Positions 7,301 to 52,021 of a DNA stretch of 64,000 nucleotides are shown piece after piece. Within the stretch, counting starts at the first letter, position 1. Every line of letters begins with the position of its first letter. Source of the stretch: Candidatus Saccharimonadota bacterium (lineage in GTDB: Bacteria > Patescibacteriota > Saccharimonadia > Saccharimonadales > UBA10212); the NCBI GenBank assembly GCA_016187125.1, contig JACPKF010000007.1:835-64834 (forward strand). Direction: 5' to 3'. The position numbers and the translations under genes were made by a program. The notes below the pieces were generated by a model. The model made no database searches. It was not told where the DNA came from and was given only the letters and a program-made list of their open reading frames with translations.

Positions 7301-7600
7301 AGCCTCCACGGGTTTACCCCACGCACCAGAAGGCCACCGACTCCTGTCGGTGGATGATAGTTGGCGCATTGGCCTTCGGTGCGGGGTTTCGCACCGTAAT
7401 CTGGGAAGCCGCCAACTCCTGTTGGCGGTGCTTCACACCCGTGGTATCCTTCATTTCTTCGGCGGAATCCGCCGAAGCACCCTCCTTCGCTTTCCAAGCT
7501 TCGGAGGGTCCACCGTTTGCCTTCATCCATGGGCTTAGGCCCATGGTCTTTGTGCGAATGCGGATAAGCATAAAGAGGTTGCTAATAAGTAGGCTTAGGC
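7301..7600. other. hairpin-dense GC-rich non-coding block (candidate structured RNA or nested small repeats)
   Basis: Hairpins: ccaccgac-TCCT-gtcggtgg (7334-7353), gccaac-TCCT-gttggc (7411-7426), cttcggcgg-aat-ccgccgaag (7457-7477), catgggcttaggcccatg. Overlapping ORFs on both strands have no coding signal. Confidence 0.5.
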
Positions 7601-9063: not shown

Positions 9064-10881
9064 ATGGATGCGGTGAGCGAAGTAAAATCTAGACTGAATA
9101 TTGAAGACGTGATTTCAGAGTACGTCCAACTGAAGCGAGCCGGGCGAAACTTTAAAGGCTTGAGCCCCTGGACCAATGAAAAAACGCCGAGTTTTATAGT
9201 TAGTCCGGAAAAGCAAATCTGGCATGATTTTTCCTCTAGTCGGGGCGGCGACATGTTTAGCTTTGTTATGGAAATGGAAGGTCTTGATTTTCGCGGTGCG
9301 CTGGAGCATTTAGCCAGGAAAGCCGGAATAGATCTAGAACAATTCCAAAGCTCAACAGCCGGTGCCAATAGCAAGTTTAAGGCTCGGGTTAGTGAAGCTT
9401 TAAGCTTGGCTGCCAAATTTTATCAAAAGCAGCTAACAGTTAATTACGCGGCTCTTTCATATCTGTTGAGTGTTAGAAAATTTAGTAAAAAAACGCTGCT
9501 TGATTGGCAGTTGGGCTATAGTCCTAATACCAGCCGCGGGCTGACCGATTTTTTATCTAAAAAGGGCTTTGAAGCTAGTGAACTGAAAGCCGCTGGACTA
9601 ATTACACAACGCCGCGATGGTAGTAACGCTGATATGTTCCGTGGACGGATAATGATCCCGCTGTGCGACAGCCGCGGCAATGTAATTGGCTTTACAGCCC
9701 GGTTTTTAGAAACCAGCCTTTCGCCAGCTGGCGAAGCCCCCAAATATATTAATACGCCCAGTACCCCGCTTTATGATAAAAGCCGTCATGTATTCGGACT
9801 GCATTTGGCCAAAGAAACTACCCGCAAGGCCGGTTTTGTGGTGGTGGTCGAAGGCAATATGGACGTTATTGCTTCTCATCAAGCCGGCGTGACTAACGTT
9901 GTAGCTACTGCCGGTACAGCCATGACCACGCAGCATCTGCGTGAGCTTAAACGTTTTACAGGTGATATTCGTCTATGTTTTGATTCCGATCAAGCCGGCA
10001 TCACAGCTACCGAGCGGGTTATACCGTTGGCTCAAAAAGTTGGCGTAAACTTAAACATTGTTAGCATAGATTCCAAAGACGGTAAAGACGCTGATGAACT
10101 GGTTCAAAAAGACCCGCAGCTATGGCAAAAAGCTATCAAACAAGCCAAGTATGCGCCGGATTGGTTAATCGAACACTACAAAGATTCTCTGGATCTGTCT
10201 TCGGCGCAGGGCAAGCGGGCTTTTACCGACGCGCTGCTAGTGACTATCAGACGCTTGAGCGACCCGGTAGAGAAAGAACACTACCTAAAAACTATCGCCG
10301 AAGCCACTAACACTAGCCTAGAGGCGATTAAGTCAAAATTGAGTGCCAGTGTTTCAGACGACTCGTTCGTGCCAAGAAGAAAAGTAGCGCCTCAGTCTCA
10401 GATTTTGGATCAAAGCGCCGTAGAATACCAAAGACTGCAGGATCATTTTTTAGCCAATGTGCTTATGCAACCTAAATTACGCGACTTACTGGATAATCTT
10501 AAGCCTGAGTATTTTAGCGAGGGCCCAGCCCGAACCACTTTTAAGTTCCTAGAGAAATATCCTGACTTTAAAGGGTTAAAAAAGGCCGCCTCGCCCGCCA
10601 ATCCGTCCAAGGCGGATCAGGAGAGCAAGGAGTTGCAGGAGATTGCTGATTATGTTAAAATTATATCATTACAGTTTGAGGAGCTCTATCAAGATCTGAG
10701 CCTGGAAGATTTAAGAATTCAGGCAGCTAGTCTCAAGAAACGCTTAATAGAGCGCTACGTAAAAAGCCAAAAGAGGCAAATTTCAGTTGCCATGCAAACA
10801 GAGGTTGATGAAAAGAAGCTGCAGGGGCTTATCCAAAAAGTTGATCAACTTAACAAACTGATCAACCCGCCCAAAAAATGA
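9064..10881 (+). CDS. dnaG: DNA primase
   Basis: Zn-ribbon region (KGLSPWTNEKTPSFIVSPEKQIWHDFSS) plus TOPRIM (VVVVEGNMDVIASHQAG...DSDQAG). The start was set at the ATG at 9064 rather than the ORF-track start. Confidence 0.9.
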   Translation: MDAVSEVKSRLNIEDVISEYVQLKRAGRNFKGLSPWTNEKTPSFIVSPEKQIWHDFSSSRGGDMFSFVMEMEGLDFRGALEHLARKAGIDLEQFQSSTAGANSKFKARVSEALSLAAKFYQKQLTVNYAALSYLLSVRKFSKKTLLDWQLGYSPNTSRGLTDFLSKKGFEASELKAAGLITQRRDGSNADMFRGRIMIPLCDSRGNVIGFTARFLETSLSPAGEAPKYINTPSTPLYDKSRHVFGLHLAKETTRKAGFVVVVEGNMDVIASHQAGVTNVVATAGTAMTTQHLRELKRFTGDIRLCFDSDQAGITATERVIPLAQKVGVNLNIVSIDSKDGKDADELVQKDPQLWQKAIKQAKYAPDWLIEHYKDSLDLSSAQGKRAFTDALLVTIRRLSDPVEKEHYLKTIAEATNTSLEAIKSKLSASVSDDSFVPRRKVAPQSQILDQSAVEYQRLQDHFLANVLMQPKLRDLLDNLKPEYFSEGPARTTFKFLEKYPDFKGLKKAASPANPSKADQESKELQEIADYVKIISLQFEELYQDLSLEDLRIQAASLKKRLIERYVKSQKRQISVAMQTEVDEKKLQGLIQKVDQLNKLINPPKK

Positions 10882-10918: not shown

Positions 10919-12088
10919 ATGCTAAAAAAGAAGACTAACGATCAATCGGCTGCCAAGCCCGATAAAGTTAAAAAACCGGGGCGAACTCCAAGAATGAAAT
11001 CGTTCGACCGAGAAATGGAGCAGCTGGTTACTCGGGGCAAAAAAGAGGGCAAGATTGAGCAGCGCGATGTTTTTGAACTAATTCCAGACACTCCGGCCAA
11101 CCTTGAAGTTTTGGACCAGCTGTATAACGAGCTGGCGGAAGCCGAAATTGAACTTATAGAAGTTGTTGAACCCAGCGTTACCGAGATTAGTGATGAGTGG
11201 GAAGAAGACGAGCCGGCAGCTGTAGTAGCACCGGTCAATACCACTTATCTAGACGATGTTTCAGACGACTCGGTCCGGCTTTATCTGCGTGAAATCGGCA
11301 AAATTCCGCTTCTGACAGCCGAAGAGGAATTAGCCCTGGCCAAAAAAGTTGTTACCGGCGACAAGCGCGCCAAAGACGCCATGGCCGAGGCTAATATGCG
11401 CCTGGTGGTTTCGATTGCTAAACGCTACGTTGGCCGAGGACTGGATCTACTGGATCTTATTCAAGAGGGCAATACTGGTCTATTGCGGGCCGTCGAAAAA
11501 TTTGATCCGGACCGGGGCTTCAAGTTCAGTACTTATGCCACTTGGTGGATTCGCCAGGCTATAACTCGGGCCATTGCCGATCAAGCCCGCACCATCAGAA
11601 TTCCAGTGCACATGGTCGAGACCATTAACAAGCTGCTACGGACTCAGCGCCGCTTGACCCAAGAGCTCAACCGCGAGCCAACCAACGAAGAAATCGGCGC
11701 CGCTATGGAAATGGACGTTGATAAAGTTGAGCACATTATGAAAATCAAGCAGGATATTTCCAGTCTTGATGCCAGCGTCCGCGACGACGAAGAAGACAGC
11801 GTGCTGGGCGATTTTATAGAGGATGAAGACACTAAAACGCCTACCGAGTCAGCCTCCGAACAGTTGCTCAAAGAACAAGTTAAAAGGATTTTAGGCACAC
11901 TGACCGAGCGCGAGCAAAAAATCCTCAAGCTTCGCTTTGGACTGGAAGACGGCAAAAGCCACACGCTGGAAGAAGTTGGCCAGGAATTTAGCGTTACTCG
12001 CGAGCGCATCCGTCAAATCGAGGCTAAAGCTCTGGCCAAGTTAAGAAAACATAAGGACACTAGAAAGCTTCATGAATATCTTCAATAG
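10919..12088 (+). CDS. rpoD: RNA polymerase primary sigma factor (sigma-70 family)
   Basis: Regions 1.2-4.2 are present: [56 protein letters not shown]. Confidence 0.95.
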
Positions 12089-12173
12089 TCATAGCACAAA
12101 CCCCGCATATTTTCATGGCGTTTCGCAATCCGCCGCAGGCGGACTGCTCCACCCAGAAAATTGGCGGGGCAGG
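12089..12173 (+). repeat. 85-nt hairpin element (family F1) with core cgcaatccgccgNaggcggactgctccaccc
   Basis: Outer inverted repeat ccccgcatattttc / gaaaattggcgggg with an inner hairpin tccgcc/ggcgga. A second copy is at 14733-14808. It sits between the two rpoD 3'-end copies. Confidence 0.75.
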
Positions 12174-12206
12174 GACACCCGCAAGTTGCATGAGTATTTG
12201 CAGTAG
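12174..12206 (+). pseudogene. displaced duplicate of the rpoD 3' end ([10 protein letters not shown])
   Basis: gac acc cgc aag ttg cat gag tat ttg cag tag encodes the same 10 aa as 12056-12088. Six codons differ, all synonymously. Its TAG abuts the ATG of the next gene. Confidence 0.85.
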
Positions 12207-12776
12207 ATGAGAATTATTGGACTTGCCGGCACCAACGGTTCAGGGAAGGATAGTTTGGGCCAGATTTTGGCTGATGGTTATGGTTACATGTTTGTGTCGG
12301 TAGCTGATTTTTTAAGGGACGAGGCTAAAAAACGCGGCTTGCCGATTGAAAGGGAAGTTTTGCGGACAATCAGCGCCGAGTGGCGCCGTGAGTACGGACT
12401 GGGGGTTTTAGTTGATAGGGCAGTAGAATTATTCCAAAAATCCGGCAAGAACTATAAAGGTTTGGCAATCAGCCCGATGCGTAACGGCGGCGAGGCCGAC
12501 AGATTAAAAGAGCTAGGCGGCAGATTAGTTTGGATAGACGCTGATCCTAAAATTCGTTACGGGCGAATAACCAATCGTGCCCGTAGCACCGAAGATAAGA
12601 AAACTTATGAGCAATTTTTAGCCGAGGAACAAGCCGAAATGCAGCCCAGCGGCGACGAGGCCACCTTGAGCTTGAGCGATGTTAAAAAACGAGCCGACAT
12701 TTTTATTCAAAATGATGTTGAATCTTTGGAAGATTTCCGCCAAATCATCGACCAAAAATTAGCTCAACTTTTGTAA
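12207..12776 (+). CDS. P-loop nucleotide/nucleoside kinase-like protein (dephospho-CoA kinase / dNMP kinase-like)
   Basis: Walker A motif GLAGTNGSGKDS at the N-terminus in a small 189-aa protein. The exact substrate is not inferable. Confidence 0.55.
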   Translation: MRIIGLAGTNGSGKDSLGQILADGYGYMFVSVADFLRDEAKKRGLPIEREVLRTISAEWRREYGLGVLVDRAVELFQKSGKNYKGLAISPMRNGGEADRLKELGGRLVWIDADPKIRYGRITNRARSTEDKKTYEQFLAEEQAEMQPSGDEATLSLSDVKKRADIFIQNDVESLEDFRQIIDQKLAQLL

Positions 12777-12791: not shown

Positions 12792-12829
12792 ATAGGAATA
12801 AATTCAGCGATCGCTGAATTTATTCCTAT
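12792..12829. terminator. perfect 38-nt palindrome centred on GCGATCGC, likely terminator
   Basis: ataggaataaattcagcga|tcgctgaatttattcctat lies 16 nt after the kinase stop. Confidence 0.6.
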
Positions 12830-14692: not shown

Positions 14693-14732
14693 AATACCTA
14701 CCTACTATCTGTCTGGCGTATAATTTTAAGTA

Positions 14733-14808
14733 ACCCGCAGATCTTTTTGGGGAGTTGCGCAATCCGCCGAAGGCGGACTGCTCCACCCTGAAAAGGTATG
14801 GGGCAAGT
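14733..14808 (+). repeat. second copy of the F1 hairpin element
   Basis: The core gcgcaatccgccgaaggcggactgctccaccc (14757-14788) and flanking inverted repeats align with 12089-12173. Confidence 0.75.
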
Positions 14809-14819: not shown

Positions 14820-14852
14820 ATGAGTGAAAGAAAGAAATTAGCGATTATAGAC
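14820..14852 (+). pseudogene. displaced duplicate of the polA 5' end (MSERKKLAIID)
   Basis: atg agt gaa aga aag aaa tta gcg att ata gac parallels the real start gtg agc cgt aag aaa ttg gct atc ata gac at 14953. Differences are synonymous, apart from ATG vs GTG at the start codon and one extra codon. Confidence 0.8.
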
Positions 14853-14927
14853 CCCAGCACCAAAATCTTGAAATTCTGCAATAGGGATATTCTCCCTCTT
14901 CTGCATTCAGGATTTGGTGCGGGGCAG
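14853..14927 (+). repeat. 75-nt MITE-like element (family F2), termini cccagcaccaaaatc / gatttggtgcggggcag
   Basis: Inverted termini. The first 20 nt (23 counting the preceding gac) and the last ~20 nt are near-identical to 24539-24611. The centre is variable. Confidence 0.8.
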
Positions 14928-14952
14928 GTCGCGGCTATAGAAAGTTGGCGAA

Positions 14953-17643
14953 GTGAGCCGTAAGAAATTGGCTATCATAGACGGAAAGAGCGTTTTCTAT
15001 AGAGGGTACTACGCCTTGCCGAATTTAAGTACCAAAGACGGAATTCCGACTGGTGGAGTTTATGGTTTCGCGTCTATGAGCCTGGAGCTTATTAAAAAAC
15101 TCAAACCGGATTATGTGGCCGTAGCTTGGGATAAACCCAAAACCAACATTAGAGCCCGGCTAAAAATGTATCCGGAGTATAAGGCCGGCCGCAAACCGGC
15201 GCCGCCGGATTTTTACACCCAAATCCCGATTTTGCATGAACTGCTAGAAGCCTTCGGTTGGCCACTGTATGAACTGGACGACTATGAAGCCGACGATATT
15301 ATGGGCACCTTGGCAGTCCAGGCCCGTAAAAAAAATATCGAAACCCAGCTTATAACCTCCGATCTTGACGCCCTGCAGCTGATCAACGGTCACGTCAAGG
15401 TCTATGCCCTAAAAAAAGGCTTCTCTAATATCGAAGAGTTTCATACCGAGAGTTTTGAAGCCAAATACGGCCTCAAAGCCGAGCAATTTTTGGATCTAAA
15501 ATCTCTAAAAGGTGACAGCTCCGATAATATTCCCGGCGTACCAGGCGTGGGTGAAAAAACAGCTATTGCTCTGCTTCAACAATACAAAACCCTGGACGGA
15601 GTTTACAAAAACTTGGAGTTAGTTAAAGACAGCCTACGCAAAAAACTTGAGGACGGCAAAGACTTAGCCTATTTGAGCAAGCAACTAGCTAAACTTTGGA
15701 CTAATGCGCCGCTTAAATTGAACCTGGAGGCGATGGACACCAGTAAATGTGATACCGACCGTCTGCGGAGTTTGCTGCAGGAACTGGAATTTCGCAGTTT
15801 GCTGAACAACTTGCCGGAGAATATGCGGGTTACACCCGCAGTAACAAGTAATATGCCCCAAGCAAAAAGCGGAGATAAATTAAAGCTCCAGGAACATAAA
15901 TTAATTGATTCAGACGCTAAACTGGCTGAAATCAAGTTGGCTGGCGATAAGATTTTTATTCATTCTCGAGCTGCCGGCCGGCACGGTGCCGACCCGCAGG
16001 TTTTGATTATCGGCACCGACAAAATTTCTTACACGCTTGATTTAACCAAGCTGGACCATAAAAAGGTCCAGCAAGCTATCAGCCATCAGCTAAAGGTTAG
16101 TAGTTCGGTGGTTGGCTATGACTTGAAATCTGATATTAAAGTTTTAAAAAACCTTGGTATCCAACCGCCGCCTGTGGCTCATGACGTCCTGGTAGCGGCC
16201 TTTTTGCTAAATCCCTTAATGCGAGTTCAAACTTTGACCGAACTGGCCACGGTAAATTTGGGCTACGGCGGCACGAGCTTAGAAGATTTGCCAACTGAAG
16301 ATTTTATAGAACGCTCCGCCGAGCTTATGGCAATTCTCATTAAGCTTTACCACGTCCAGCAACACGAATTTGGCGAGGCGCCAACGCTCGAGCGCTTAGC
16401 TAAACAAATCGAATGGCCGCTTATTCCGGTGTTAGCCGATATGGAATACCGCGGTATTAAACTCGACGTTAAGTATCTGAAAAATTTTTCCAAAAAAATA
16501 GAAGATTCGATTAGCGATCTGGAGCAAACCATTTATGGCCACGCCGACTACGAGTTTAATATCAGCTCGCCGGCCCAGCTAGCAGACGTACTATTTACCA
16601 AACTCAATCTTCCCAAGCAGGGAATTAAAAAAGGCAAAACCGGCTTGTCAACGGCGGCCAGCGAGCTGGAAAAATTGCGCGGCCTGCATCCGATTATTGA
16701 TTTAATTAGCCAGTACCGCGAAGTAACTAAGCTCAAAAATACCTACGTTGACGCCTTGCCGGCCTTAGTGGACGCCAGTAGCCGCATTCACACTACTTTT
16801 AATCTGACAGTTGCTCAAACCGGCCGGCTATCGAGTGCCGATCCGAATTTGCAAAATATTCCGGTCCGCACCGAGCTGGGTAAAAATATCCGCACCGCTT
16901 TTATAGCGGAGCGCGGCAATGTTTTTGTCAGTGCCGATTACAGCCAGTTCGAAATAAGGCTAGCGGCCGCCTTTTCGGGCGACCAAGATATGATTGACGC
17001 TTTTAACCAAGATATGGACATTCATGCCGAAACCGCCGCGCTGGTGTTGGGTATCCCGGTTGATAAGGTAACTAGCGAACAGCGTTATGCGGCTAAAGCC
17101 GTCAATTTTGGCATCATGTACGGCCAAGGCCCGCATGGTCTGAGTGTTGGTACGGGTATGGATTACACAGCGGCCCGGGAATTTATTGCCAGATATTTTG
17201 AAGTGCGGCCCAAACTCAAAGAATATATAGATTCGATTCGTAGGGAAGCCGAAGAGCAGGGCTTTGTAGAGACAATCCTAGGCCGCCGCCGGCCAACTCC
17301 GGACGTTAAATCTTCTAACTTCGCGGTCCGCGAGGCTGCTTATCGGGCGGCAATAAACATGCCATTGCAAGGCAGTGCCGCCGATCTCATGAAAATGGCG
17401 ATGGTAGCGGTGAACAAAGAATTTGAGAGCCGCTACCATCGCCATCCTGAGCGGAGCGATAGCAGAGTCGAGGGATGGCCTCGAATGTTACTTCAGATCC
17501 ATGACTCTATACTTGTTGAAACCCCTGAGTCGTTAACTAAACAAGTGGGCGATTTGCTTAAGGACACCATGGAAAACATCCACAAACTACCCGTGAAGTT
17601 GGCAGTAGATATTTCTGTAGGTAAAAATTGGGGCGAACTCTAG
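14953..17643 (+). CDS. polA: DNA polymerase I
   Basis: 896 aa with a 5' nuclease N-terminus, a 3'-5' exo-like domain and pol motifs (DYSQFEIRLAA, KAVNFGIMYG, QIHDS). GTG start. Confidence 0.95.
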   Translation: MSRKKLAIIDGKSVFYRGYYALPNLSTKDGIPTGGVYGFASMSLELIKKLKPDYVAVAWDKPKTNIRARLKMYPEYKAGRKPAPPDFYTQIPILHELLEAFGWPLYELDDYEADDIMGTLAVQARKKNIETQLITSDLDALQLINGHVKVYALKKGFSNIEEFHTESFEAKYGLKAEQFLDLKSLKGDSSDNIPGVPGVGEKTAIALLQQYKTLDGVYKNLELVKDSLRKKLEDGKDLAYLSKQLAKLWTNAPLKLNLEAMDTSKCDTDRLRSLLQELEFRSLLNNLPENMRVTPAVTSNMPQAKSGDKLKLQEHKLIDSDAKLAEIKLAGDKIFIHSRAAGRHGADPQVLIIGTDKISYTLDLTKLDHKKVQQAISHQLKVSSSVVGYDLKSDIKVLKNLGIQPPPVAHDVLVAAFLLNPLMRVQTLTELATVNLGYGGTSLEDLPTEDFIERSAELMAILIKLYHVQQHEFGEAPTLERLAKQIEWPLIPVLADMEYRGIKLDVKYLKNFSKKIEDSISDLEQTIYGHADYEFNISSPAQLADVLFTKLNLPKQGIKKGKTGLSTAASELEKLRGLHPIIDLISQYREVTKLKNTYVDALPALVDASSRIHTTFNLTVAQTGRLSSADPNLQNIPVRTELGKNIRTAFIAERGNVFVSADYSQFEIRLAAAFSGDQDMIDAFNQDMDIHAETAALVLGIPVDKVTSEQRYAAKAVNFGIMYGQGPHGLSVGTGMDYTAAREFIARYFEVRPKLKEYIDSIRREAEEQGFVETILGRRRPTPDVKSSNFAVREAAYRAAINMPLQGSAADLMKMAMVAVNKEFESRYHRHPERSDSRVEGWPRMLLQIHDSILVETPESLTKQVGDLLKDTMENIHKLPVKLAVDISVGKNWGEL
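17442..17478 (+). repeat. in-frame hairpin insert (family F4, CCTGAGC...GTCGARGG) inside polA
   Basis: ccatcctgagcggagcgatagcagagtcgagggatgg is translated as HPERSDSRVEGW just upstream of the QIHDS motif. Related units are at 24445-24508 and 62650-62790. Confidence 0.65.
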
Positions 17644-17646
17644 CTT

Positions 17647-18285
17647 ATGAATAACTCGATTCCTGATCAAAGAGATTTTTGGAATAGAAGACACGGTAAT
17701 GAGCTAGAGGAAGACAGAGACGTTAATCCATTCGCTATCCTTGCTGAGCAAAGTTTTCAACCGCATTCTAAAGTTTTAGATTTGGGCTGTGGAAGGGCAA
17801 GCGATGCGGTTTATTTTGCGAGTAAAGGCCACAGTGTTTTAGCAACTGACTTTTCAGAGACAGTAATCGATCATAACAAAAAAACTTTGAGTAATTCTGG
17901 AGTTGATTTTCAAGTTTTTGATTTACGCCAGTCGCTTCCAGCAGGATCGGAAAGCTTCGACGCCGTTTATTCTAGCCTATCTCTTCATTACTTTGGCGAT
18001 AAAATTACCAAAGGAATCTTTAGTGAGATTCACCGAGTACTCAAGACTGGCGCGACTTTTGCTTTTAGTTGCAAGTCTGTCAACGATCAGCACTACGGCG
18101 AAGGAAGCGAAATAGAAAAGAATGTTTTCATATCCCCTAAAGGCTACCTTAGACATTTCTTTTCTGAGAGTTATGTAAAAGAACTTTTAGCTGATGGCTT
18201 CGAAATTGATCTGCTTGAAGAAGTGCAAGAGGATTATGTGGGAGAGGATTCACATATTATCCACTGTATTGCCCGGAAGTTATAA
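17647..18285 (+). CDS. class I SAM-dependent methyltransferase (cassette between two polA 3' ends)
   Basis: Motif I is VLDLGCGRASDAVYFASKGHSVLATDFS. The ATG lies 3 nt after the polA stop. Confidence 0.85.
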   Translation: MNNSIPDQRDFWNRRHGNELEEDRDVNPFAILAEQSFQPHSKVLDLGCGRASDAVYFASKGHSVLATDFSETVIDHNKKTLSNSGVDFQVFDLRQSLPAGSESFDAVYSSLSLHYFGDKITKGIFSEIHRVLKTGATFAFSCKSVNDQHYGEGSEIEKNVFISPKGYLRHFFSESYVKELLADGFEIDLLEEVQEDYVGEDSHIIHCIARKL

Positions 18286-18291
18286 ATTGTA

Positions 18292-18339
18292 AAACTCAAA
18301 GTCGATATCTCCACCGGCAAAAACTGGGGCGAACTATAA
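18292..18339 (+). pseudogene. displaced duplicate of the polA 3' end (KLKVDISTGKNWGEL*)
   Basis: Parallels 17596-17643 (KLAVDISVGKNWGEL*) with 9 synonymous and 2 replacement codon differences. Confidence 0.85.
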
Positions 18340-23804: not shown

Positions 23805-24522
23805 AGCTGAAGCTGGGCAGGAACTAGCTGGAGCCCTTATGAAATATAAAGACAGGAACGCGGTGGTTTATGGGCTGCCGCGGGGCGGAGTAGTGGTAGC
23901 GGCCGAAGTTGCCCATGCACTTAACGCCCCTTTGGATCTGATTATTGCTAGAAAAATCGGTCATCCGGCTCACGCGGAATACGCCATCGCCGCCGTAACC
24001 GAGGACTCAGAACCTGTAGTAAATGAAGCAGAAGTTGCTTCGATTGGCAAAGACTGGTTTGAGCGAGCCCTAAAAGAACAAAGAGTCGAGGCCAAGCGCC
24101 GCCGGGAGCTTTATTTAGGTGGTCGCAGACATATTTCACCGAAAGGCAAAATCGCAATCGTGGTTGATGATGGTATAGCTACCGGTTTAACGCTCCAAGC
24201 GGCAATTAAGAGCTTAAAGCCCCGGCGTCCAGCTAAAATTGTGGTGGCCGTGCCAGTGGCGCCGGATGATACAGTAGCTGAAATAGAAGCTGAAGTAGAT
24301 GAGATGGTATGCTTGCATAAGGAAAAAGATTTTTTTGGCGCCGTTGGCAGCTATTATCAATTTTTTGAGCAAGTAGAAGACAGCGAAGTTATTGATCTTC
24401 TGCAAGAGTTTGATACGTACGACCCATTCGATAAAACTCAGGCTCGTCCTGAGCAACGTCGAACGGACGACGAGCTCAGTATCAATCCTGAGCATAGTCG
24501 AAGGATTGAAAATGAGCATTGA
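23791..24522 (+). CDS. phosphoribosyltransferase-family protein
   Basis: The PRPP loop IVVDDGIATGLT is present. The N-terminus RDRAEAGQELA..YGLPRGGVVVA is typical of putative PRTases. The C-terminal ~30 aa are encoded by F4 repeats. Confidence 0.7.
   Translation: MWRDRAEAGQELAGALMKYKDRNAVVYGLPRGGVVVAAEVAHALNAPLDLIIARKIGHPAHAEYAIAAVTEDSEPVVNEAEVASIGKDWFERALKEQRVEAKRRRELYLGGRRHISPKGKIAIVVDDGIATGLTLQAAIKSLKPRRPAKIVVAVPVAPDDTVAEIEAEVDEMVCLHKEKDFFGAVGSYYQFFEQVEDSEVIDLLQEFDTYDPFDKTQARPEQRRTDDELSINPEHSRRIENEH
24445..24508 (+). repeat. two tandem F4 hairpins forming the C-terminal tail of the PRTase
   Basis: The hairpins are cgtcctgagcaacgtcgaacggacg and caatcctgagcatagtcgaaggattg. Confidence 0.65.
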
Positions 24523-24538
24523 AGCCGTAATATTCGAC
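24512..24538 (+). pseudogene. displaced duplicate of the HAD-hydrolase 5' end (MSIEAVIFD)
   Basis: atg agc att gaa gcc gta ata ttc gac overlaps the stop of the upstream gene. It parallels the real start gtg att aaa gcc gtg ata ttt gac at 24630. Confidence 0.8.
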
Positions 24539-24611
24539 CCCAGCACCAAAATCTTGAAGCTCCATAATCTGATTGCAGACTACTTAAGCTCAGGATTTGG
24601 TGCGAGGCAAG
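24539..24611 (+). repeat. second copy of the F2 MITE-like element
   Basis: cccagcaccaaaatcttgaa ... tcaggatttggtgcgaggcaag has the same termini as 14853-14927. Confidence 0.8.
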
Positions 24612-24629
24612 TTGCTTTGGGGTATCGCA

Positions 24630-25202
24630 GTGATTAAAGCCGTGATATTTGACTGCTTCGGTGTCTTAACGAAGGATTGGTGGCGGGAATTTTGTGCCTC
24701 AGTACCGCCCGGCCCGGGTCTGCAAAAAGCCAAAGAGCTCAACCACCTCTATGACGCCGGACTTATAAGCTTGAAAGAATTTGTAGCCGGTGTTGAACAA
24801 GTCACGGGCCGTGAACCCCAACCGATCGAAGACATTTTTGCTAGTCCCGAGCCAATTAAAAACACTACTTTGCTTGAATATATAAAAAGCTTAAAAACTG
24901 GCTACAAGATTGGCATGATTAGCAACGTGGGCACTAATTGGGTGAGGGATTATTTTTTGAGCCCTGAGGAGCAAAGGCTTTTTGACGATATGGTGTTTTC
25001 TTTTGAGGTCGGAACTACCAAACCTGACCCCAGGATTTACGAGCTAGCTACCAAGCGTCTGGGCCTTAAGCCCCAGGACTGCGTTTTTATAGACGATATT
25101 GAAAGATATTGCGAAGCCGCTCGGGCCACAGGCATGAAGGCTATCCTATACAAAGACTTTGAACAGATGAAAACTGAGCTCGATAAGCTTCTTCAGGCCT
25201 GA
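24630..25202 (+). CDS. HAD-superfamily hydrolase (subfamily IA-like)
   Basis: Motif I AVIFDCFGVLT, later SNVG and the DD motif FIDDIERY. GTG start; the ORF track starts at 24597 inside the F2 element. Confidence 0.75.
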   Translation: MIKAVIFDCFGVLTKDWWREFCASVPPGPGLQKAKELNHLYDAGLISLKEFVAGVEQVTGREPQPIEDIFASPEPIKNTTLLEYIKSLKTGYKIGMISNVGTNWVRDYFLSPEEQRLFDDMVFSFEVGTTKPDPRIYELATKRLGLKPQDCVFIDDIERYCEAARATGMKAILYKDFEQMKTELDKLLQA

Positions 25203-31822: not shown

Positions 31823-32593
31823 ATGGATGGATTTTTGTTAGTTGATAAGCCAATTGGTATGACGTCGCATGATATTGTAGCGAGAGTGCGCGGCGTGCTA
31901 CGCACAGTCGCCAGTCAATACTCAACAGTCGCCAGTCGAAAAAAACTAGGGACTAAGGACTATCGACTAGTGACTCCTTCGGCGAAGCCGAAGGTTGGTC
32001 ACACTGGAACTCTGGATCCGCTGGCCACGGGATTGATGATTTTAGTGATCGGCAGTTATTGTAAACGGGCTAGCGAATTTAGCAAATTGGACAAAACTTA
32101 TGAAGTAGAACTGACGTTAGGAGCTACCAGTACAACCGGTGATACCGAAGGTCACATAACTTCAACTTCAGATAAGCACAACCTAAACAGAATTCAGCGA
32201 TCGCTGAATTCTGTTCCGAAAATAACGGAGGTGCTTAAGACATTTATTGGCGAAATTAAACAGGTTCCTCCAGCCTATAGTGCCATCAAAGTGGGCGGAC
32301 AAAGGGCCTATAAATTGGCGCGGCAAGGGAAGCCAGTCAAAATTGAGCCGCGAAAGGTTATGATCTACGAAATACGATCTACGATCTACGAGTACCCGAA
32401 GCTGTGTTTCACAGCCAGGGTGTCTAGTGGTACATACATCCGGTCACTGGCCGAAGATATCGGTAAAAAACTCGGCACCGGCGCTTATGTTTCAGCTCTG
32501 CGCCGCACCAAAGTTGGAGGCCTTAATATAGAAAATGCTCTCGAAATTGACAAGTTCTCGCTTCCAAACATCGAAAATCACTTGCAAAAGTAG
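31823..32593 (+). CDS. truB: tRNA pseudouridine(55) synthase with repeat-derived inserts
   Basis: Contains GFLLVDKPIGMTSHDIV, KVGHTGTLDPLATG and SSGTYIRSLAEDIG. Confidence 0.9.
   Translation: MDGFLLVDKPIGMTSHDIVARVRGVLRTVASQYSTVASRKKLGTKDYRLVTPSAKPKVGHTGTLDPLATGLMILVIGSYCKRASEFSKLDKTYEVELTLGATSTTGDTEGHITSTSDKHNLNRIQRSLNSVPKITEVLKTFIGEIKQVPPAYSAIKVGGQRAYKLARQGKPVKIEPRKVMIYEIRSTIYEYPKLCFTARVSSGTYIRSLAEDIGKKLGTGAYVSALRRTKVGGLNIENALEIDKFSLPNIENHLQK
32187..32216. repeat. perfect 30-nt palindrome (aacagaattcagcga|tcgctgaattctgtt) inside the truB CDS
   Basis: It has the same ttcagcgatcgctgaa core as 12792-12829 and is translated as NRIQRSLNSV. Confidence 0.75.
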
Positions 32594-38098: not shown

Positions 38099-40186
38099 AT
38101 GGATGACAAAGCAAAAAATCTAGACAGTCAACCATCCAATCAGCCAAATAGTAGAACCGCGCCCGGTCGTAACTTGGTTACTTCAACCGGCCGAAATGTC
38201 TCTAGAGGGGCGGCCATCCGGGCCCAAAAACAAGCGGTTAACGATGCTAATCGGGTAGCTAGTCAATATCTTGATGCAGCCAATAAACATCCGCTGGCTA
38301 GCGGAGACCGGCCAAGACGTGCCAACGTTATTGATGATAATCCGCGGCTAAAAATTATTGGCTTGGGTGGCATGGATGGTGGCGGTTCTAAAAATATGCT
38401 GGTGATCGAATACCAAAATGATGCAATTGTGATTGATTGCGGCAATGATCTAGGCGTTGATCTGCCAGGCATTAACTACGGTATCGCTGATACGACTTAC
38501 CTCGATCAAATAAAAAATAAGCTAAGAGGTTTTGTCATAACCCATGGGCATCTGGACCACATGGGCGGCCTACCTCACATTTTACCCAAATATAACGTGC
38601 CGGTTTATGGCGGCCGTTTTACCATCGGACGGGTGGAGGAAATCTTTCAAAACTTTGGCCTGCCAATGCCCAAGGGCTTTGAGCTTAAAACTGTCATCAT
38701 GAACGAAACAACCCACGAACGTCTTAAAATTGGCGTGTTTTTCGTGGAATTGGTGCGAGTAACCCATGCCATCCCAGGCAGCACCATGGTAGTGGTTGAT
38801 ACACCGGTGGGTAGAATTATAAATACCGGTGACTTTCGCCTAGATCCCAATCCTTTGGATCACGAAAGAACGGATACGGCACGCATTGAGGAACTGTCTC
38901 GTGAAAATGTGCTGCTACTGATGAGCGAAAGTACTACCACCGAAACCCTTGGCCGTACGCTATCGGAAAGCCAAATCGAGAAAAGCTTTATAGACATTAT
39001 GGACCAGGCGCCCGGACGGATTTTCGTGGCTATTTTCTCGACCAATGTCAATCGCATCCAGATGATAGTTAACGCTGCTGTGCACCACGGGCGTAAAGTG
39101 GCGATTGATGGACGCAGCATGATTAGCACGCTGGAAATGGCCGTAAAAAACGGCTTTATGAAGATTCCCAAGGGTACATTTGTACCGATAGCTTCAGTGT
39201 CTAATCTCAAAGATGATCAAGTTGTGGTAGTCAGTACTGGAGCCCAAGGCGAACCGAACTCGGCGCTTCAACGCATGAGTACGGGGGATCATAAATACGT
39301 TGCATTAAAAGAACAAGACACCGTCATTCTGTCTAGCCGGGCTATTCCGTACACCGGCAATGACGCCTTAATACGCTCTATGGTTGATGAGCTCTTTAAA
39401 AAAGGAGTACACGTTTTTCGTCACGAAACCTACGAGCTGGACGGCGGTGGGCCACTGCACGTTTCCGGGCACGGCGGTCAAGAAGAATATCGGGATATGA
39501 TTAAAATGGTCAAACCAAAATTCTTTTTGCCCATTTACGGCGACTATACCGCCAAAAAATACCATATAGATATTGCTTTGGAGGAGGGAATTCCGCGGGT
39601 CAATACACTGAACGTTGACAACGGCCAAGTCATAACGCTTGCTAAAGACAAAATGCAGCTTGGTGGCGAGGTGCCGCATGGCACCATCTTGGTAGATCAA
39701 ACCGGGGCTGTGGTTAGCACGGTGGTGGTTAAAGACCGGGTCCTACTGGCCGAAGAGGGCGTAGTGGCGGTGGTGCTGACTATCGACAAAAAAACCGGCC
39801 AGCTTCTAACTAGCCCAGATATAATCAGCCGCGGCTTTATCTACATGAAAGAGAATGAAGAGCTAATGAATGCTTTTCGCGCCGAACTGCGCCGAGCGGT
39901 TAGCCAGCGCTTTAAGCGGGTTGATCTGGACCGCTTTAAGGCCGAGCTAAAAGACTACGTCACCCACTTTTTGTACGAGCAAACCCAACGCAGCCCAATT
40001 GTCATCCCAGTAGTTAACGTTATTGGCGGCCGGGCAGAAAAAGCCAATAATAATCTGCACGGTGCCGGCCAAGTTGCGCCCAGCGGTGAAACTCCCAAGA
40101 CGCCTGAAGAGATTGCTTTAGAACAGCAGCGCCGATTTGCACAGATGAGGCAACGACTGCTCAACCAAGACGCCCGTGTGGACTAA
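38099..40186 (+). CDS. rnj: ribonuclease J
   Basis: Metallo-beta-lactamase HGHLDHMGG, beta-CASP layout and the conserved HVSGHGGQEE. There is a ~90-aa polar N-terminal extension. Confidence 0.9.
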   Translation: MDDKAKNLDSQPSNQPNSRTAPGRNLVTSTGRNVSRGAAIRAQKQAVNDANRVASQYLDAANKHPLASGDRPRRANVIDDNPRLKIIGLGGMDGGGSKNMLVIEYQNDAIVIDCGNDLGVDLPGINYGIADTTYLDQIKNKLRGFVITHGHLDHMGGLPHILPKYNVPVYGGRFTIGRVEEIFQNFGLPMPKGFELKTVIMNETTHERLKIGVFFVELVRVTHAIPGSTMVVVDTPVGRIINTGDFRLDPNPLDHERTDTARIEELSRENVLLLMSESTTTETLGRTLSESQIEKSFIDIMDQAPGRIFVAIFSTNVNRIQMIVNAAVHHGRKVAIDGRSMISTLEMAVKNGFMKIPKGTFVPIASVSNLKDDQVVVVSTGAQGEPNSALQRMSTGDHKYVALKEQDTVILSSRAIPYTGNDALIRSMVDELFKKGVHVFRHETYELDGGGPLHVSGHGGQEEYRDMIKMVKPKFFLPIYGDYTAKKYHIDIALEEGIPRVNTLNVDNGQVITLAKDKMQLGGEVPHGTILVDQTGAVVSTVVVKDRVLLAEEGVVAVVLTIDKKTGQLLTSPDIISRGFIYMKENEELMNAFRAELRRAVSQRFKRVDLDRFKAELKDYVTHFLYEQTQRSPIVIPVVNVIGGRAEKANNNLHGAGQVAPSGETPKTPEEIALEQQRRFAQMRQRLLNQDARVD

Positions 40187-40354
40187 TATTTCCGGACGCT
40201 GCCTCGACTCGATATAGCTGTTGATTAAAAACAGGCTCGCTCGGGAACTCCTCGGAATTCATCCACTGGATAAATTCTTCGTCAAACAGCCCTCGCACCC
40301 AAGGACGCCTCTTTTCAACAACATCTACTCGGGCCTCGCCAGATGCCCGGAAAT
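40187..40354 (+). repeat. copy E (diverged) of the A/B/C/D/E repeat family, starting immediately after the rnj stop
   Basis: Begins atttccggacgctg and ends cgccagatgcccggaaat (inverted ends). It contains the aattcatcc module. Confidence 0.55.
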
Positions 40355-40475
40355 ATTAGTCCATCCTCCAAAAAATCGAAGCCAAGGACAGACTGTTTTA
40401 CGCTCGCCCGGCTTCAGGTTCGCTGCGCAGGCCTAGAATTCAAACCGTTGGCCACTCTATTGAAGGTTTAGAAAA

Positions 40476-40504
40476 TTGACAAAAGCACATAAATTTGCTA
40501 CAGT
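40476..40504 (+). promoter_or_regulatory. cassette-internal promoter TTGACA-17-TACAGT
   Basis: aaaaTTGACAaaagcacataaatttgcTACAGT is followed by the SD aaaagga and the ATG at 40531. Confidence 0.55.
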
Positions 40505-40530
40505 ATATCTATATTATAAAAAGGATACGT

Positions 40531-41019
40531 ATGACAACTCACGATCATCCACCTTCACCAGAACAACCAGCCACACCTAATTTACTTGGCCTTTTTGAAA
40601 GAGTTGGAATGCTAGTACAAGCGCAGACTGATGAGGACCGAGGTCTTTATCAATCAGACCCTCCTATTCATTATAAGGAGTTCACTCCTGATATAGAAGA
40701 TGGCGAAGACCGAGATCCGGATGTTACTAGCATCACTTGGCCGCTTAAACCTGAATATGATAAAGCCGACCGGTTTCTTCCTAGTGGAGAACTAATGGTA
40801 GGAACAGATGAAAAGGAAATTGTCTATACATTCGGTCGGGTAATCGCTGAAGATTTGGACCAACCAAATACACCAAAAATAAAGAAACGCCAAAAGCTTT
40901 ATAATGTTGCAAATCCCGAATGGGAATCGGAGAGAGAGTTGAGCGACGATGAAGTTGAAGAACTACAAGAAATTCAGAAAGTTCTAGCGGAAATCGAACA
41001 AAAATTAGCAGTAGACTAA
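40531..41019 (+). CDS. hypothetical acidic protein (162 aa), cassette 1 cargo
   Basis: Intact ORF with its own promoter and SD. No motif recognised. Confidence 0.5.
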   Translation: MTTHDHPPSPEQPATPNLLGLFERVGMLVQAQTDEDRGLYQSDPPIHYKEFTPDIEDGEDRDPDVTSITWPLKPEYDKADRFLPSGELMVGTDEKEIVYTFGRVIAEDLDQPNTPKIKKRQKLYNVANPEWESERELSDDEVEELQEIQKVLAEIEQKLAVD

Positions 41020-41020
41020 T

Positions 41021-41050
41021 CTTCTCAACCAAGACGCCCGGGTTGATTAG
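41021..41050 (+). pseudogene. second copy of the rnj 3' end (LLNQDARVD*)
   Basis: ctt ctc aac caa gac gcc cgg gtt gat tag versus the real ctg ctc aac caa gac gcc cgt gtg gac taa. All differences are silent. Confidence 0.85.
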
Positions 41051-41283
41051 CCCTGTTTGCGGTTCTTAAGGAATTCTTCGGTTGTTAGTCCAATATCTTT
41101 ACAAATCTGTCTGAGCAAAATTGGTGAGATATCCCGAGATCCATGAACCGGCACAGTTGTTGCCCGTCCGTCTGGATGCCTGAATTGTTGATGCGAACCG
41201 CGCTGGCGCGCCAAGCTAAAGCCCAGCCTTTCCAAAATGGCGATTACCCCTTTTGGCTTTAAGACAGGCAGCTTAACAGCCAT
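41047..41283 (-). CDS. hicA: HicA-family mRNA interferase toxin
   Basis: The pattern ILERLGFSLARQRGSHQQFRHPDGRATTVPVHGSRDISPILLRQICKDIG is the HicA (YcfA) pattern. Confidence 0.8.
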   Translation of the reverse strand: MAVKLPVLKPKGVIAILERLGFSLARQRGSHQQFRHPDGRATTVPVHGSRDISPILLRQICKDIGLTTEEFLKNRKQG

Positions 41284-41284
41284 T

Positions 41285-41503
41285 TTAGACTGCGACTAAT
41301 TGCGTACCGACGAAATATGATTCTGGCTTCTGGTTATTATCATCTTCGAGCACTAAAGCCACTACCTCTTTGAGATTTTTGTTCAATTCCTCCAGCGTTT
41401 CGCCCTGAGTGTGGGCGCCGGGCAAATCAGGCACATAGGCTACGTACAGACCAGTAGCTACATCCTTTTCAATAATTGCGGTATAGGCTTGCGCGGATTT
41501 CAT
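41285..41503 (-). CDS. hicB: HicB-like antitoxin (UPF0150 fold)
   Basis: YTAIIEKDVATGLYVAYVPDLPGAHTQGETLEELNKNLKEVVAL is the HicB N-domain pattern. It lies 1 nt upstream of hicA. TGtTATAAT is 7 nt before the ATG. Confidence 0.75.
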   Translation of the reverse strand: MKSAQAYTAIIEKDVATGLYVAYVPDLPGAHTQGETLEELNKNLKEVVALVLEDDNNQKPESYFVGTQLVAV

Positions 41504-41538
41504 AATAATAATTATAACACGTTTCGGCTGTGTTCGGG

Positions 41539-41595
41539 CGCCGCTTCGCCCAGATGCGCCAACGTCTGCTTAACCAAGACGCTCGCGTCGACTAG
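41539..41595 (+). pseudogene. third copy of the rnj 3' end (RRFAQMRQRLLNQDARVD*)
   Basis: Of 19 codons parallel to 40130-40186, 10 differ and all are silent (the stop changes TAA to TAG). Confidence 0.88.
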
Positions 41596-41645
41596 TCTCA
41601 ATCCGAGGTCCGAGACTTACTTCATAATAGATAACAGATCAAGAT

Positions 41646-41683
41646 ATGAGAATAGATTCAGCGTTCGCTGAATCTATTCTCAT
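41646..41683. terminator. palindromic hairpin atgagaatagattcagcg-tt-cgctgaatctattctcat
   Basis: An 18-bp stem 50 nt after the last rnj-end copy. It has the same termini as the element at 1561-1661. Confidence 0.6.
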
Positions 41684-41780
41684 ACTCTTTGTCCACCTGC
41701 AGAACCTAGTTATCGACGCGTCGAGTAAGTTAACTGCAAGGGAAGAGAATATTTAATTAGTTAAGTACTTAATGATTTAC

Positions 41781-48497: not shown

Positions 48498-48523
48498 TTC
48501 TAATATTCTTAAGAATATTAGAA
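48498..48523. repeat. perfect 26-nt palindrome ttctaatattctt|aagaatattagaa just upstream of the HTH gene
   Basis: It ends 7 nt before the ATG at 48531 and belongs to the 4-copy palindrome family. Confidence 0.8.
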
Positions 48524-48530
48524 TGTAACT

Positions 48531-50884: not shown

Positions 50885-52021
50885 CTAGACATTGAAACGG
50901 AATTCGACTACGTCGTCGGGTTGCATAATGTAGTCTTTACCCTCGGTGCGCACCTTGCCAGCGGCCCGGGCGCCCGCTACTGAACCGGCAGTAATTAAAT
51001 CCTGGTAATTTATGACTTGAGCGGCGATGAAACCTCTCTGAAAGTCGGAATGAATAACCCCTGCGGCTTGTGGGGCAGTGGACCCTTTGCTAATTGTCCA
51101 GGCCCGAACTTCTTTTTCGCCGGCGGTCAAGAAACTCTGCAAGCCCAAAACACCATATGCGGCATGAATTAACTGAATTAGCCCACTCTCATTTTGTCCA
51201 TAACTGGCAAGGAGTTCCTGACGGTCAGTTTCGTCAAGTCCCCGTAGCTCACTTTCTAATTTTGCGCAAATAAATACGGCTTTTGCGGGCGCAATTAGAT
51301 CTGTTAATTCCTTTTGCAGGGATTGTCCCTGCAAACTGGCTTCGTCGATGTTAAACACGTAAATTACTGGCTTAGCAGTTAGCAGCTGGAGTTCGTCCAA
51401 GAAAACTGACTGGTCCTTATCCATTCTAATATTCTTAAGAATATTAGAATGGGACAGGGAAGAGTTGGTTTGTAGGTGGGTATTGATAGAATTTAGGGCG
51501 TCGAGTTGAGGTTTTAGTTTTGGGTTGGCTTTAGTTTCTTTTTCCAAACGGGGCAGGCGTTTATCAACCGTTTGCAGGTCGGCAAGTACCAGTTCGGTAT
51601 TTATTATTTCTATATCCTCCGACGCTCCGACCACTAAGTCGGAAGTCGGAGCCCCGATCGAAGCGTCGGGGTTTTTCACGCGGGCTACATTTGGATCATC
51701 AAAGGCTCTTACTACGTGGCAAATGGCATTTGCTTGTCTAATGTGGGATAAAAATTGGTTGCCCAAACCCTCGCCTTGGCTGGCGCCAGCGACTAAACCG
51801 GCAATATCTACAAATGTCACCGTGGCTGGCACGATTTTTTCGGTTTTATAAATCTCGGCCAGTTTTTGCAAGCGCGAGTCGGGAATCGGCACGATGCCGG
51901 TATTTGGCTCAATGGTCGCAAAAGGGTAATTAGCAATCAGGGCATTAGCGTCTGTCAACGCATTAAACAGCGTAGACTTACCGACATTGGGGAGGCCAAT
52001 AATTCCAATACTAAGACTCAA
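50885..52021 (-). CDS. ychF: redox-regulated ATPase YchF
   Basis: GIIGLPNVGKSTLFNALT, the TGS domain and the C-terminal DDVVEFRFNV. It carries a palindrome insert at 51421-51452. Confidence 0.95.
   Translation of the reverse strand: MSLSIGIIGLPNVGKSTLFNALTDANALIANYPFATIEPNTGIVPIPDSRLQKLAEIYKTEKIVPATVTFVDIAGLVAGASQGEGLGNQFLSHIRQANAICHVVRAFDDPNVARVKNPDASIGAPTSDLVVGASEDIEIINTELVLADLQTVDKRLPRLEKETKANPKLKPQLDALNSINTHLQTNSSLSHSNILKNIRMDKDQSVFLDELQLLTAKPVIYVFNIDEASLQGQSLQKELTDLIAPAKAVFICAKLESELRGLDETDRQELLASYGQNESGLIQLIHAAYGVLGLQSFLTAGEKEVRAWTISKGSTAPQAAGVIHSDFQRGFIAAQVINYQDLITAGSVAGARAAGKVRTEGKDYIMQPDDVVEFRFNV
51421..51452. repeat. perfect 32-nt palindrome ccattctaatattctt|aagaatattagaatgg inside the ychF CDS
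   Basis: It is translated on the minus strand as SHSNILKNIRMD in the helical insertion domain and belongs to the same family as the 48.5-kb copies. Confidence 0.85.

Follow-up and report, generated by a model that had tools for sequence, protein, structure and literature searches.

Why should the gene for a primary sigma factor end twice? In the stretch of DNA analysed here (64 kb, hereafter the window), rpoD closes on ten codons and a stop and, after a short non-coding interval, the same ten codons and stop are met again, differently spelled, at the threshold of the following gene. The locus thus raises the question of which of the two ends is the native one and how the other came to stand beside it. 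We have approached it through the layout of the region, the spelling of the rpoD end among related genomes and the recurrence of similar structures at other genes of the window.

A doubled rpoD terminus around a hairpin repeat

The product of rpoD matches the Pfam domains Sigma70 r1_1, r1_2, r2, r3 and r4, of which region 4 ends at residue 377; the duplicated stretch, residues 380-389, lies past that end. A spacer, a hairpin and a trailing cagg make up the 85 nt (12089-12173) between the two rpoD tails, and the working tail, this element and the downstream copy (the relic) together form a 151-nt region (Table 1). Both copies encode an identical terminal decapeptide followed by a stop. They agree at 24 of 33 positions, and the 9 nucleotides that differ fall in six codons (T, R, L, E, L and Q), every change being silent. 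The first-pass annotation had described a rpoD 3' end doubled around an 85-nt hairpin, with identical peptides and six silently altered codons, and all of this is borne out. Because the relic stands in frame +1 relative to rpoD, it lies outside the reading of RpoD; an in-frame extension of RpoD, or read-through into the relic, was rejected on the ground that the 85-nt element shifts the relic to that frame. Two other candidates were set aside. A diversity-generating retroelement does not fit the differences between working tail and relic (T/C, A/C, A/C, C/T, T/G, A/G, C/T, T/G, A/G), which have no adenine specificity, and an attC-like reading of the region was rejected from the sequence itself.

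Table 1. Features of the rpoD locus and of the other duplicated gene termini, in window positions.
Feature	Position	Strand	Particulars
rpoD, primary sigma-70 factor	10919..12088	+	Complete ORF, ending in the working tail
Working rpoD end (F tail)	12056..12088	+	gac act aga aag ctt cat gaa tat ctt caa tag
Bridging ORF, 44 codons	12072..12206	+	ATG inside ctt cAT Gaa, through the hairpin, to the relic stop
Spacer	12089..12100	+	tcatagcacaaa; 12 nt between rpoD stop and hairpin
E1 hairpin repeat element	12101..12173	+	69-nt imperfect stem-loop CCCCGC...GCGGGG (12101-12169) plus cagg
Relic rpoD end	12174..12206	+	gac acc cgc aag ttg cat gag tat ttg cag tag
Kinase-like gene	12207..12776	+	AAA_18/AAA_17 (Pfam), 189 aa; ATG at 12207 adjoins the relic stop
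Hairpin E2, second E1-type copy	14732-14805
polA start, consensus-like copy	14820-14852		MSERKKLAIID; ATG AGT GAA AGA AAG AAA TTA GCG ATT ATA GAC
Hairpin E3a	14853-14928		Followed by 24 nt resembling a diverged promoter copy (TATAGA)
polA working start	14953		GTG AGC CGT AAG AAA TTG GCT ATC ATA GAC
HAD-hydrolase old start	24512-24538		ATG AGC ATT GAA GCC GTA ATA TTC GAC
Hairpin E3b	24539-24611		Both ends near-identical to those of E3a; apical part is that of the E1 homolog in L092
HAD-hydrolase working start	24630		18 nt past E3b; GTG ATT AAA GCC GTG ATA TTT GAC
polA end, two copies	17596-17643 and 18292-18339		KLAVDISVGKNWGEL and KLKVDISTGKNWGEL, each with a stop; 212-aa methyltransferase gene between
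RNase J end	40130 and 41539		RRFAQMRQRLLNQDARVD with a stop; 11 silent differences
RNase J end, third copy	41021		LLNQDARVD with a stop; three copies around two cassettes

The passage from rpoD through E1 into the relic recurs with 0 differences in six separate Logan assemblies of different runs (L081-L085 and L123), so that it is no assembly artefact. When the tails of all ORFs were compared with the full length of the window, chance matches never reached 9/9 residues, which the real duplicates alone did, and coincidental similarity is thereby excluded. The contig does derive from a metagenome, from which a chimera of two strain alleles might be feared, or else a fortuitous likeness of the two tails; but with an identical junction in six independent assemblies, the same architecture in the unrelated metagenome contigs L092 and L122 and no chance peptide match of such length in the window, the probability of either is negligible. 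The identity of the decapeptide is in itself less striking than it seems, because the last 120 residues of RpoD are near-invariant across the clade and any two of its members will therefore show silent differences only. The window belongs to a Saccharibacteria (TM7) genome, and the nearest rpoD loci in the genome collection are without exception from Saccharibacteria MAGs. Exact-protein look-ups with the kinase, RpoD, the methyltransferase and HicA recovered only the same population, always with the insertion present and with no empty-site strain; for the methyltransferase of the polA-end insert, this look-up gave no record.

As RNA, E1 is predicted to fold at -38.5 kcal/mol on the + strand (z -4.6) and at -45.7 on the - strand (z -5.8), in both cases well beyond what shuffled sequence attains. 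Searched against Rfam, the window had 0 matches at gathering score, and E1 by itself had none at E<=1. An intrinsic terminator was considered and rejected, the hairpin being followed by cagggacaccc with no T-run and being absent from the list of the terminator scan. The first-pass annotation had proposed a covariance search for the hairpin elsewhere, and the search, run within the 64-kb window, did find it to recur: the E1 model, among whose training sequences are both E1 (108.5 bits) and E2 (93.4 bits), has two matches outside its training set, at 24527-24611 (25.2 bits) and 14845-14928 (18.5 bits). On 51 related loci the same model matched in L092 alone, and viral contigs scanned for the E1 core gave 0 matches.

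The E1 homolog of L092, 82 nt long, occupies the same site, and its apical stem has been swapped yet is still paired, with compensatory changes. The window and L092 agree in about 90% of E1 but in only about 55% of the third positions of rpoD. The element of L122 belongs to a different hairpin family and is homologous to window positions 56349-56462, where a MITE-like element has inverted arms of about 35 nt and a 4-bp target duplication, TATG; E1 has no short target duplication apart from a shared GAC. Stem bases are common to the hairpins (CCCCGYA...TRCGGGG), and the spacer that follows the rpoD stop is conserved in L092 and partly so in L122. In each of the three hairpin cases in the window, relic and hairpin base meet without a gap, always with a GAC triplet at the meeting point, and donor-like spacer DNA stands between the working copy and the hairpin. 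The recurrence of this junction between GAC and hairpin base hints that the joint may be non-random.

Spelling of the rpoD end among relatives

Metagenome contigs were searched for any codon spelling of the terminal decapeptide plus stop, which gave 31 loci; contigs fetched by way of the kinase added more, and the spelling comparison comprises 34 distinct tails. The 33-nt repeat is single-copy in the 31 other distinct tails (L086-L121). In element-free genomes the working rpoD end has a relic-like spelling, with its stop 0-17 nt before the next gene, and in L104, L107, L114, L118 and L120 the rpoD stop lies 0-3 nt from the kinase ATG. Most element-free genomes share one dominant spelling, gaY acc cgc aaa ctc cac gaa taY ttg cag taa. 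From the working end of L099, which stands 1 nt from its kinase ATG, the relic differs at 3 of 33 positions and the working tail of the window at 12; from the working end of L119 the corresponding counts are 5 of 33 and 8. The single tail of L119 is chimeric in its spelling, gat act aga aag being followed by ttg cac gag. The 12-mer AGAAAGCTTCAT is confined to three of the 34 distinct tails, those of the window, L092 and L122, all with a hairpin insertion and a relic, and the spelling AGA-AAG-CTT-CAT is likewise exclusive to the three genomes with a hairpin insertion at the rpoD end.

The strength of this association needs to be read with care. The three working tails are mutually 4-5/30 apart, a distance nowise exceptional in the clade (permutation p 0.25), because one dominant spelling is common to most of its members; overall distances being unremarkable, the link with insertion rests on the shared specific spelling, which was picked after the data had been seen. 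The 9 silent changes in ten codons that separate working tail from relic exceed the mean clade distance of 6.1/30. Codon usage is uninformative (log-likelihood difference between working tail and relic, 0.18), since the bias of the genome is weak. No longer imported tract was found upstream of the working tail by sliding identity or by third-position identity, the profile being flat, and the neighbour-joining tree of the rpoD 3' half is star-like and cannot alone place the insertions, for which protein signatures were used instead. The source state, an F-type tail with a hairpin and no relic, was found in no genome compared.

The first-pass annotation had taken the downstream copy for the ancestral end, and the relic-like working ends that adjoin the next gene in element-free relatives support it in this. 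When the rpoD junctions of relatives were examined, as it had suggested, the upstream spelling was found in none of the 34 tails without an insertion, and relic-like spellings proved to be in use. Its further claim, that the functional end came with the element, is best taken as joint arrival of the two from a diverged relative; a hairpin that carries gene ends as its cargo is the poorer wording. These comparisons, then, support the downstream copy as the old rpoD end, with the working end having come in together with the hairpin.

Insertions at the same site in two further contigs bear on this directly. In L092 the working tail (gat act aga aag ctt cat gag tac ctt cag tag) is followed by the E1 homolog and by a relic that reads gac acc TGC aaa ctc cac gaa tac ttg caa taa, with an R to C change; the next gene, whose ATG lies 9 nt past this relic, is a second sigma gene and not the kinase. 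In L122 the tail gac acc aga aag ctt cat gag tac tta caa tag is followed by a 160-nt hairpin and a relic, aaa ctc cac gaa tac ctg caa tag, from which the first three codons have been lost. To judge by these changes, R to C in the one and truncation in the other, both relics behave like displaced copies. By protein signature, with five residues differing in 120, the rpoD of L122 belongs to another subgroup than those of the window and L092. The nearest relatives of L122 are L109 and L110. Its relic is 2/24 away from theirs, and its rpoD body matches its nearest relatives as well; with body and relic both local, the working tail and its hairpin are the odd piece. That tail differs from L109 at 7 of 24 positions, plus AGA for CGC, as counted from the alignment.

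The relics of the window and L092 are 9/33 apart, with 7 of the differences at third, 2 at first and 0 at second codon positions. Differences of so coding-like a kind mean that the two diverged as coding sequence and not neutrally after one old insertion, and up to a fairly recent time, it appears, each relic still served as the end of a working gene. The junction of hairpin and relic is identical in the window and L092 (cagg/GACAC), which needs either common descent with later replacement of the relic or a preference for this junction; a purely random joint would give neither. The three F-type tails (window, L092 and L122) are not mutually independent. A link between insertions and the CAT spelling that creates an ATG was down-weighted for this reason, and also because the 'insert' of L087 resembles a remnant of the second sigma gene.

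Recurrence at other genes and reading frames across the hairpins

A repeated-peptide self-scan and the hairpin covariance model brought out further cases in the 64-kb window, at both ends of polA, at the start of a HAD-hydrolase gene and at the end of the RNase J gene (Table 1). The native leaderless promoter of polA, ggcgTATAATtttaagta, matches that of L117, L114 and L088, in which it adjoins the ATG; in the window, E2 separates this promoter from the consensus-like polA start. At the other end of polA the second copy is the clade consensus, its peptide being identical to that of L114 and its nucleotides matching L099 at 20/20. The cassettes at the RNase J end contain a 174-aa ORF and a HicA/HicB pair, and the region with its two downstream copies is reproduced in independent assemblies. 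L088 has a small duplication of its own at the polA end.

Where relatives allow comparison, it is the working copy that departs from the consensus, and the copy in native surroundings that resembles it. The length of the duplication varies at one and the same gene (33 vs 24 nt for rpoD, 48 vs about 22 nt in L088 for the polA end, 30 vs 57 nt for RNase J), which fits a process without site specificity; together with the presence of some hairpin-free inserts, such variation makes a single fixed attachment site unlikely. At least six events of this kind are present in 64 kb, and more in the relatives.

Reading frames pass through the hairpins as well. The bridging ORF at rpoD (Table 1) has open equivalents in L092 and L122, each with an ATG that arises from the cat-gaR spelling, in the frame of the relic and with its stop beside the next gene. 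Within the 160-nt element of L122 the bridging frame has 0 stops and the other frames 3 and 5, and in this element, as in E3a and E3b, the bridging frame alone is stop-free. In the polA and HAD cases the old ATG opens an ORF that crosses hairpin and spacer and whose stop lies 8 nt (polA) or 5 nt (HAD) past the beginning of the new GTG. The element at 56349-56462 precedes the true start of a gene for a secreted protein; a duplicated ATG lies ahead of the element, which keeps the frame between the two. For five elements, the shuffle probabilities of the bridging frame have a product of about 1e-4, in a test devised after the pattern had been seen. The arrangement suggests that ribosomes may be handed across the hairpins, keeping translational coupling to the kinase or other next gene despite the insertion. 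The relic itself may still be of use, since its stop beside the kinase start could keep the kinase coupled.

Origin of the region and its place among known systems

On a modest balance of probability, we regard the 151-nt region as a scar of recombination with DNA from a diverged relative, left by homologous exchange in rpoD and a non-homologous joint at the hairpin base. The donor unit would comprise the last ten rpoD codons of the relative, 12 nt of its intergenic DNA and a hairpin repeat sitting after its rpoD stop. DNA in which the hairpin lay just outside the gene would be taken up from this relative, the incoming strand would pair with the resident rpoD in ordinary homologous recombination, and the non-homologous far end would be joined illegitimately, with the hairpin base meeting the resident gene 33 nt before its stop. 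The donor tail would then complete RpoD, and the resident tail would be displaced as the relic, still directly before the kinase ATG. That the differences are silent only would be explained by both copies having evolved as working rpoD ends in separate lineages, one of them foreign. Saccharibacteria are naturally competent (PMC10633639). At the joint of hairpin and relic, microhomology is at the AGG/GAC level only, and the upstream boundary of the tract is not detectable. We infer the direction of transfer, with the working tail as the xenologous one, and likewise the mechanism of recombination and the role in coupling, from the comparisons set out above.

Locally, the structure is symmetric, and either polarity would yield it. 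The working tail and E1 might thus be native, E1 being an ordinary intergenic hairpin, and the relic with the kinase region foreign and joined illegitimately at the hairpin base, through a recombination anchored downstream; the 'relic' would then never have served this genome. Between the window and L092 the working tails differ at 4/33 positions and the rest of rpoD by about 17%, which is about alike, and it is past the relic that the two diverge, with the kinase in one and the second sigma gene in the other and relics 9/33 apart, all as such a history would have it. We nevertheless think it unlikely, for L122 resembles its nearest relatives in rpoD body and relic alike, with the working tail and its hairpin as sole outlier, the spelling of the working tail occurs in no uninterrupted genome among the 34 tails compared, and at the end and start of polA it is the deviant copy that is fused to the gene body, with the consensus-like copy beside the native flanks. 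A miniature site-specific element strikes us as improbable too; here an integrase or HUH-type enzyme encoded elsewhere would, acting in trans, move a 118-nt unit of tail and hairpin that has its att core near AAGGACAC. The unit holds neither a recombinase nor a protein-sized ORF, and the Pfam-scanned neighbouring ORFs (kinase, PDT, methyltransferase, HicA, HicB and unknowns) include no recombinase. Such an element would account for the junction shared by the window and L092, for the GAC triplet at every hairpin-relic junction in the window and for the spelling of the working tail that accompanies the insertion, and it has a precedent in e14, where icd extends into the element and an icdC fragment lies at the far end (PMC13626634). 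However, the rpoD duplication measures 33 nt from GAC in the window and L092 and 24 nt from AAA in L122, beside another hairpin family; one hairpin family (E3a and E3b) flanks duplicates of two unrelated genes, so that the gene-specific part is not a fixed cargo; and the cassettes at the polA and RNase J ends are without any hairpin.

Foreign DNA would not be called for at all if the hairpin had inserted with a 33-nt target duplication, the translated copy thereafter drifting silently and the relic staying near-unchanged. A selected copy is indeed expected to gather silent differences alone, and the MITE-like element at 56349-56462 has a true target duplication, though of just 4 bp. An unselected relic, on the other hand, should change the faster of the two and at all codon positions, yet the relic is consensus-like (3/33 from L099) and the working tail is the outlier. 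Duplication in place is also at odds with the number of silent changes, 9 in ten codons as against the typical clade distance, with the coding-like differences between the relics of the window and L092 and with the presence of the same odd spelling in the different rpoD background of L122, and we allow it a slim chance at best. Doubtful, in turn, is a hitherto undescribed route of insertion at gene termini in Saccharibacteria of this clade, in which translatable hairpins (CCCCGYA...TRCGGGG, with GAC) mark or make the joint, the terminus of a relative is captured with or without its promoter, and relics serve as parts of the coupling. The hairpins would here play an active role in making the joint, for instance if an enzyme's one-ended cleavage were coupled to homologous recombination, and a stop-free ORF through the hairpin would lead ribosomes on either to the downstream gene or to that part of the gene which has been displaced.

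If the recombination scar is the correct reading, such scars record gene flow between diverged Saccharibacteria lineages, and ultra-small, compact genomes would be seen to take insertions at gene boundaries while rpoD and polA stay unbroken and the next gene remains coupled. The density of events suggests a frequent process, which annotation pipelines overlook and may mistake for small ORFs. Its signature, a silently respelled terminal duplicate around an insert, is searchable and could allow cassette gain driven by recombination to be charted throughout the Candidate Phyla Radiation. A systematic survey is warranted by the hairpin family, by the bridging ORFs and by how often these events occur in the present lineage.

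Several known systems resemble parts of this picture. The MITE and REP-like hairpin repeats include translated palindromic elements such as the Rickettsia RPEs. The present hairpins are like them in being short, multi-copy and non-coding, in their shared stem bases, in their position at gene termini and in having one frame open. One member (56349-56462) has terminal inverted repeats and a 4-bp duplication, whereas E1 is without a visible short duplication. We know of no transposase partner for these hairpins, and flanking by respelled copies of a gene terminus is, to our knowledge, not a described property of any MITE or REP family.

The architecture at rpoD corresponds to that of insertion with long target duplication, reportedly a finding of Nobusato et al. 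in 2000 and taken up by Furuta et al. in 2010 (PMC2853133). Such insertions have no mobility gene, are bounded by direct repeats of >30 bp that are single-copy in relatives, and are found mostly in naturally competent species; the repeats often overlap the 3' end of a gene, and their lengths vary (PMC2853133). The insert at rpoD is alike in its want of a mobility gene, its 33-nt repeats and the single copy of these in relatives. The published repeats are near-identical (44/46, for example) and the cargo is restriction-modification, whereas here the cargo ranges from an 85-nt hairpin up to a methyltransferase gene and a HicAB pair, and the repeats are 73-85% identical with differences all or nearly all silent, for which reason one copy would be foreign.

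At icd, e14 supplies the working 3' end, an icdC fragment remains, and excision causes parallel silent changes (PMC13626634). The likeness to e14 and phage 21 lies in an insert that completes rpoD, a displaced native end that survives and differences that are mostly silent. Whereas e14 is a prophage of 15 kb that brings its own integrase and uses a fixed att site, the unit at rpoD is non-coding and 118 nt long, and the junction positions vary between genomes. Homology-facilitated illegitimate recombination, for its part, is defined by experiment, whereas our case is read from sequence alone, and the recurrent joint of hairpin base and GAC is outside its description. The rpoD terminus would nonetheless share with that process one homologous anchor, one non-homologous joint, foreign DNA beside a conserved gene and a host phylum that is competent.

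Duplicated gene starts at polA and the HAD-hydrolase gene

The 5' end of polA is present twice in the window (14820-14982). The old start, which is consensus-like, is followed directly by hairpin E3a and a promoter-like spacer, after which the gene opens at a new GTG. A second, separate feature lies at the same gene: hairpin E2 (14732-14805), another copy of the element found at the rpoD tail, exactly separates the native leaderless promoter TATAATtttaagta from the old ATG. The 5' end of the HAD-hydrolase gene is likewise present on both sides of a hairpin, E3b (region 24512-24653), and the two loci share their architecture and have nearly identical hairpin ends. The old HAD-hydrolase ATG overlaps the stop codon of the upstream gene, and the ORF that begins there ends at GTGATTAA.

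Features of the window and their coordinates
Feature	Position	Remarks
Old polA start	14820-14852	MSERKKLAIID; consensus-like
Hairpin E3a	14853-14928	directly after old polA start
Spacer		24 nt, promoter-like; between E3a and new polA start
New polA start	14953	GTG
SAM-methyltransferase gene	17647-18285	212 aa; between two polA 3' ends
Hairpin E3b	24539-24611	
New HAD-hydrolase start	24630	GTG
Perfect palindromes, distinct family	12792-12829, 41645-41684, 32186-32215, 1553-1661	...aTTCAGCG(nn)CGCTGAAt...; at gene ends
AT-rich 28-nt repeat	48498-48525, 51424-51451	identical; also near 14069
MITE-like element	56349-56462	114 nt; inverted arms of ~35 nt, TATG duplication
Two T2SSE-family ATPases	60778-63862	PilB-like (596 aa), PilT-like (354 aa)

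Duplicated gene ends and the rpoD tails of relatives

Gene ends are also repeated around entire cassettes. The 3' end of polA occurs twice (17596-18339) as 48-nt copies that differ at 2 residues, with a methyltransferase gene between them; the working copy deviates from the clade consensus, with which the downstream copy agrees. A small duplication of the polA end is present in a contig of a relative (L088, 15080-15165), in which GQNWGQL-stop, 19 nt and KNWGEL-stop are followed directly by the next gene. The RNase J 3' end occurs in three copies (40130-41595) of 57, 30 and 57 nt, all of whose differences are silent and which bracket a cassette made up of a 174-aa ORF and, on the opposite strand, a HicA/HicB toxin-antitoxin pair. 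These copies look like the outcome of serial insertion at a single gene end.

Among the relatives, the working rpoD tail of L119 and L112 is gat act aga aag ttg cac gag tat ttg cag tag, the first 12 nt of which are those of the F-type tail that works in the window, while the last 21 nt are those of the window's relic, the presumed old rpoD end, with 1 difference. From its sequence, this tail reads like a chimera of the two types, the expected leftover if a hairpin were lost via recombination between two tail copies. In another relative, L087 (region 9779-10025), an 80-aa ORF lies between rpoD and the kinase gene; its C-terminal part is similar to sigma region 4, and the ORF may have been left over from the second sigma gene found in L088 and L092. 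The L087 kinase bears an N-terminal extension, MVRDTVKL, that may represent a decayed rpoD-tail relic.

Other repeats and possible type IV pilus genes

The MITE-like element, which folds at -71.6 kcal/mol (z -12.5), sits between a TATAAT box and the start codon (ATG) of a gene for a signal-peptide protein and is in frame without stops. It is a homologue of the hairpin that L122, a relative, carries at its rpoD tail. The perfect palindromes look like bidirectional terminators; at the one at 12792-12829 the same-population assemblies break, contigs L081-L085 stopping at window position 12821. The AT-rich repeat is palindromic at 51421-51452. A pair of GC-rich arms ~75 nt apart within overlapping ORFs (7334-7428), coding for PPTPVGG and, on the other strand, for PPTGVGG, is probably a further hairpin element.

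The PilB-like and PilT-like ATPases are consistent with a type IV pilus, the machinery for DNA uptake.
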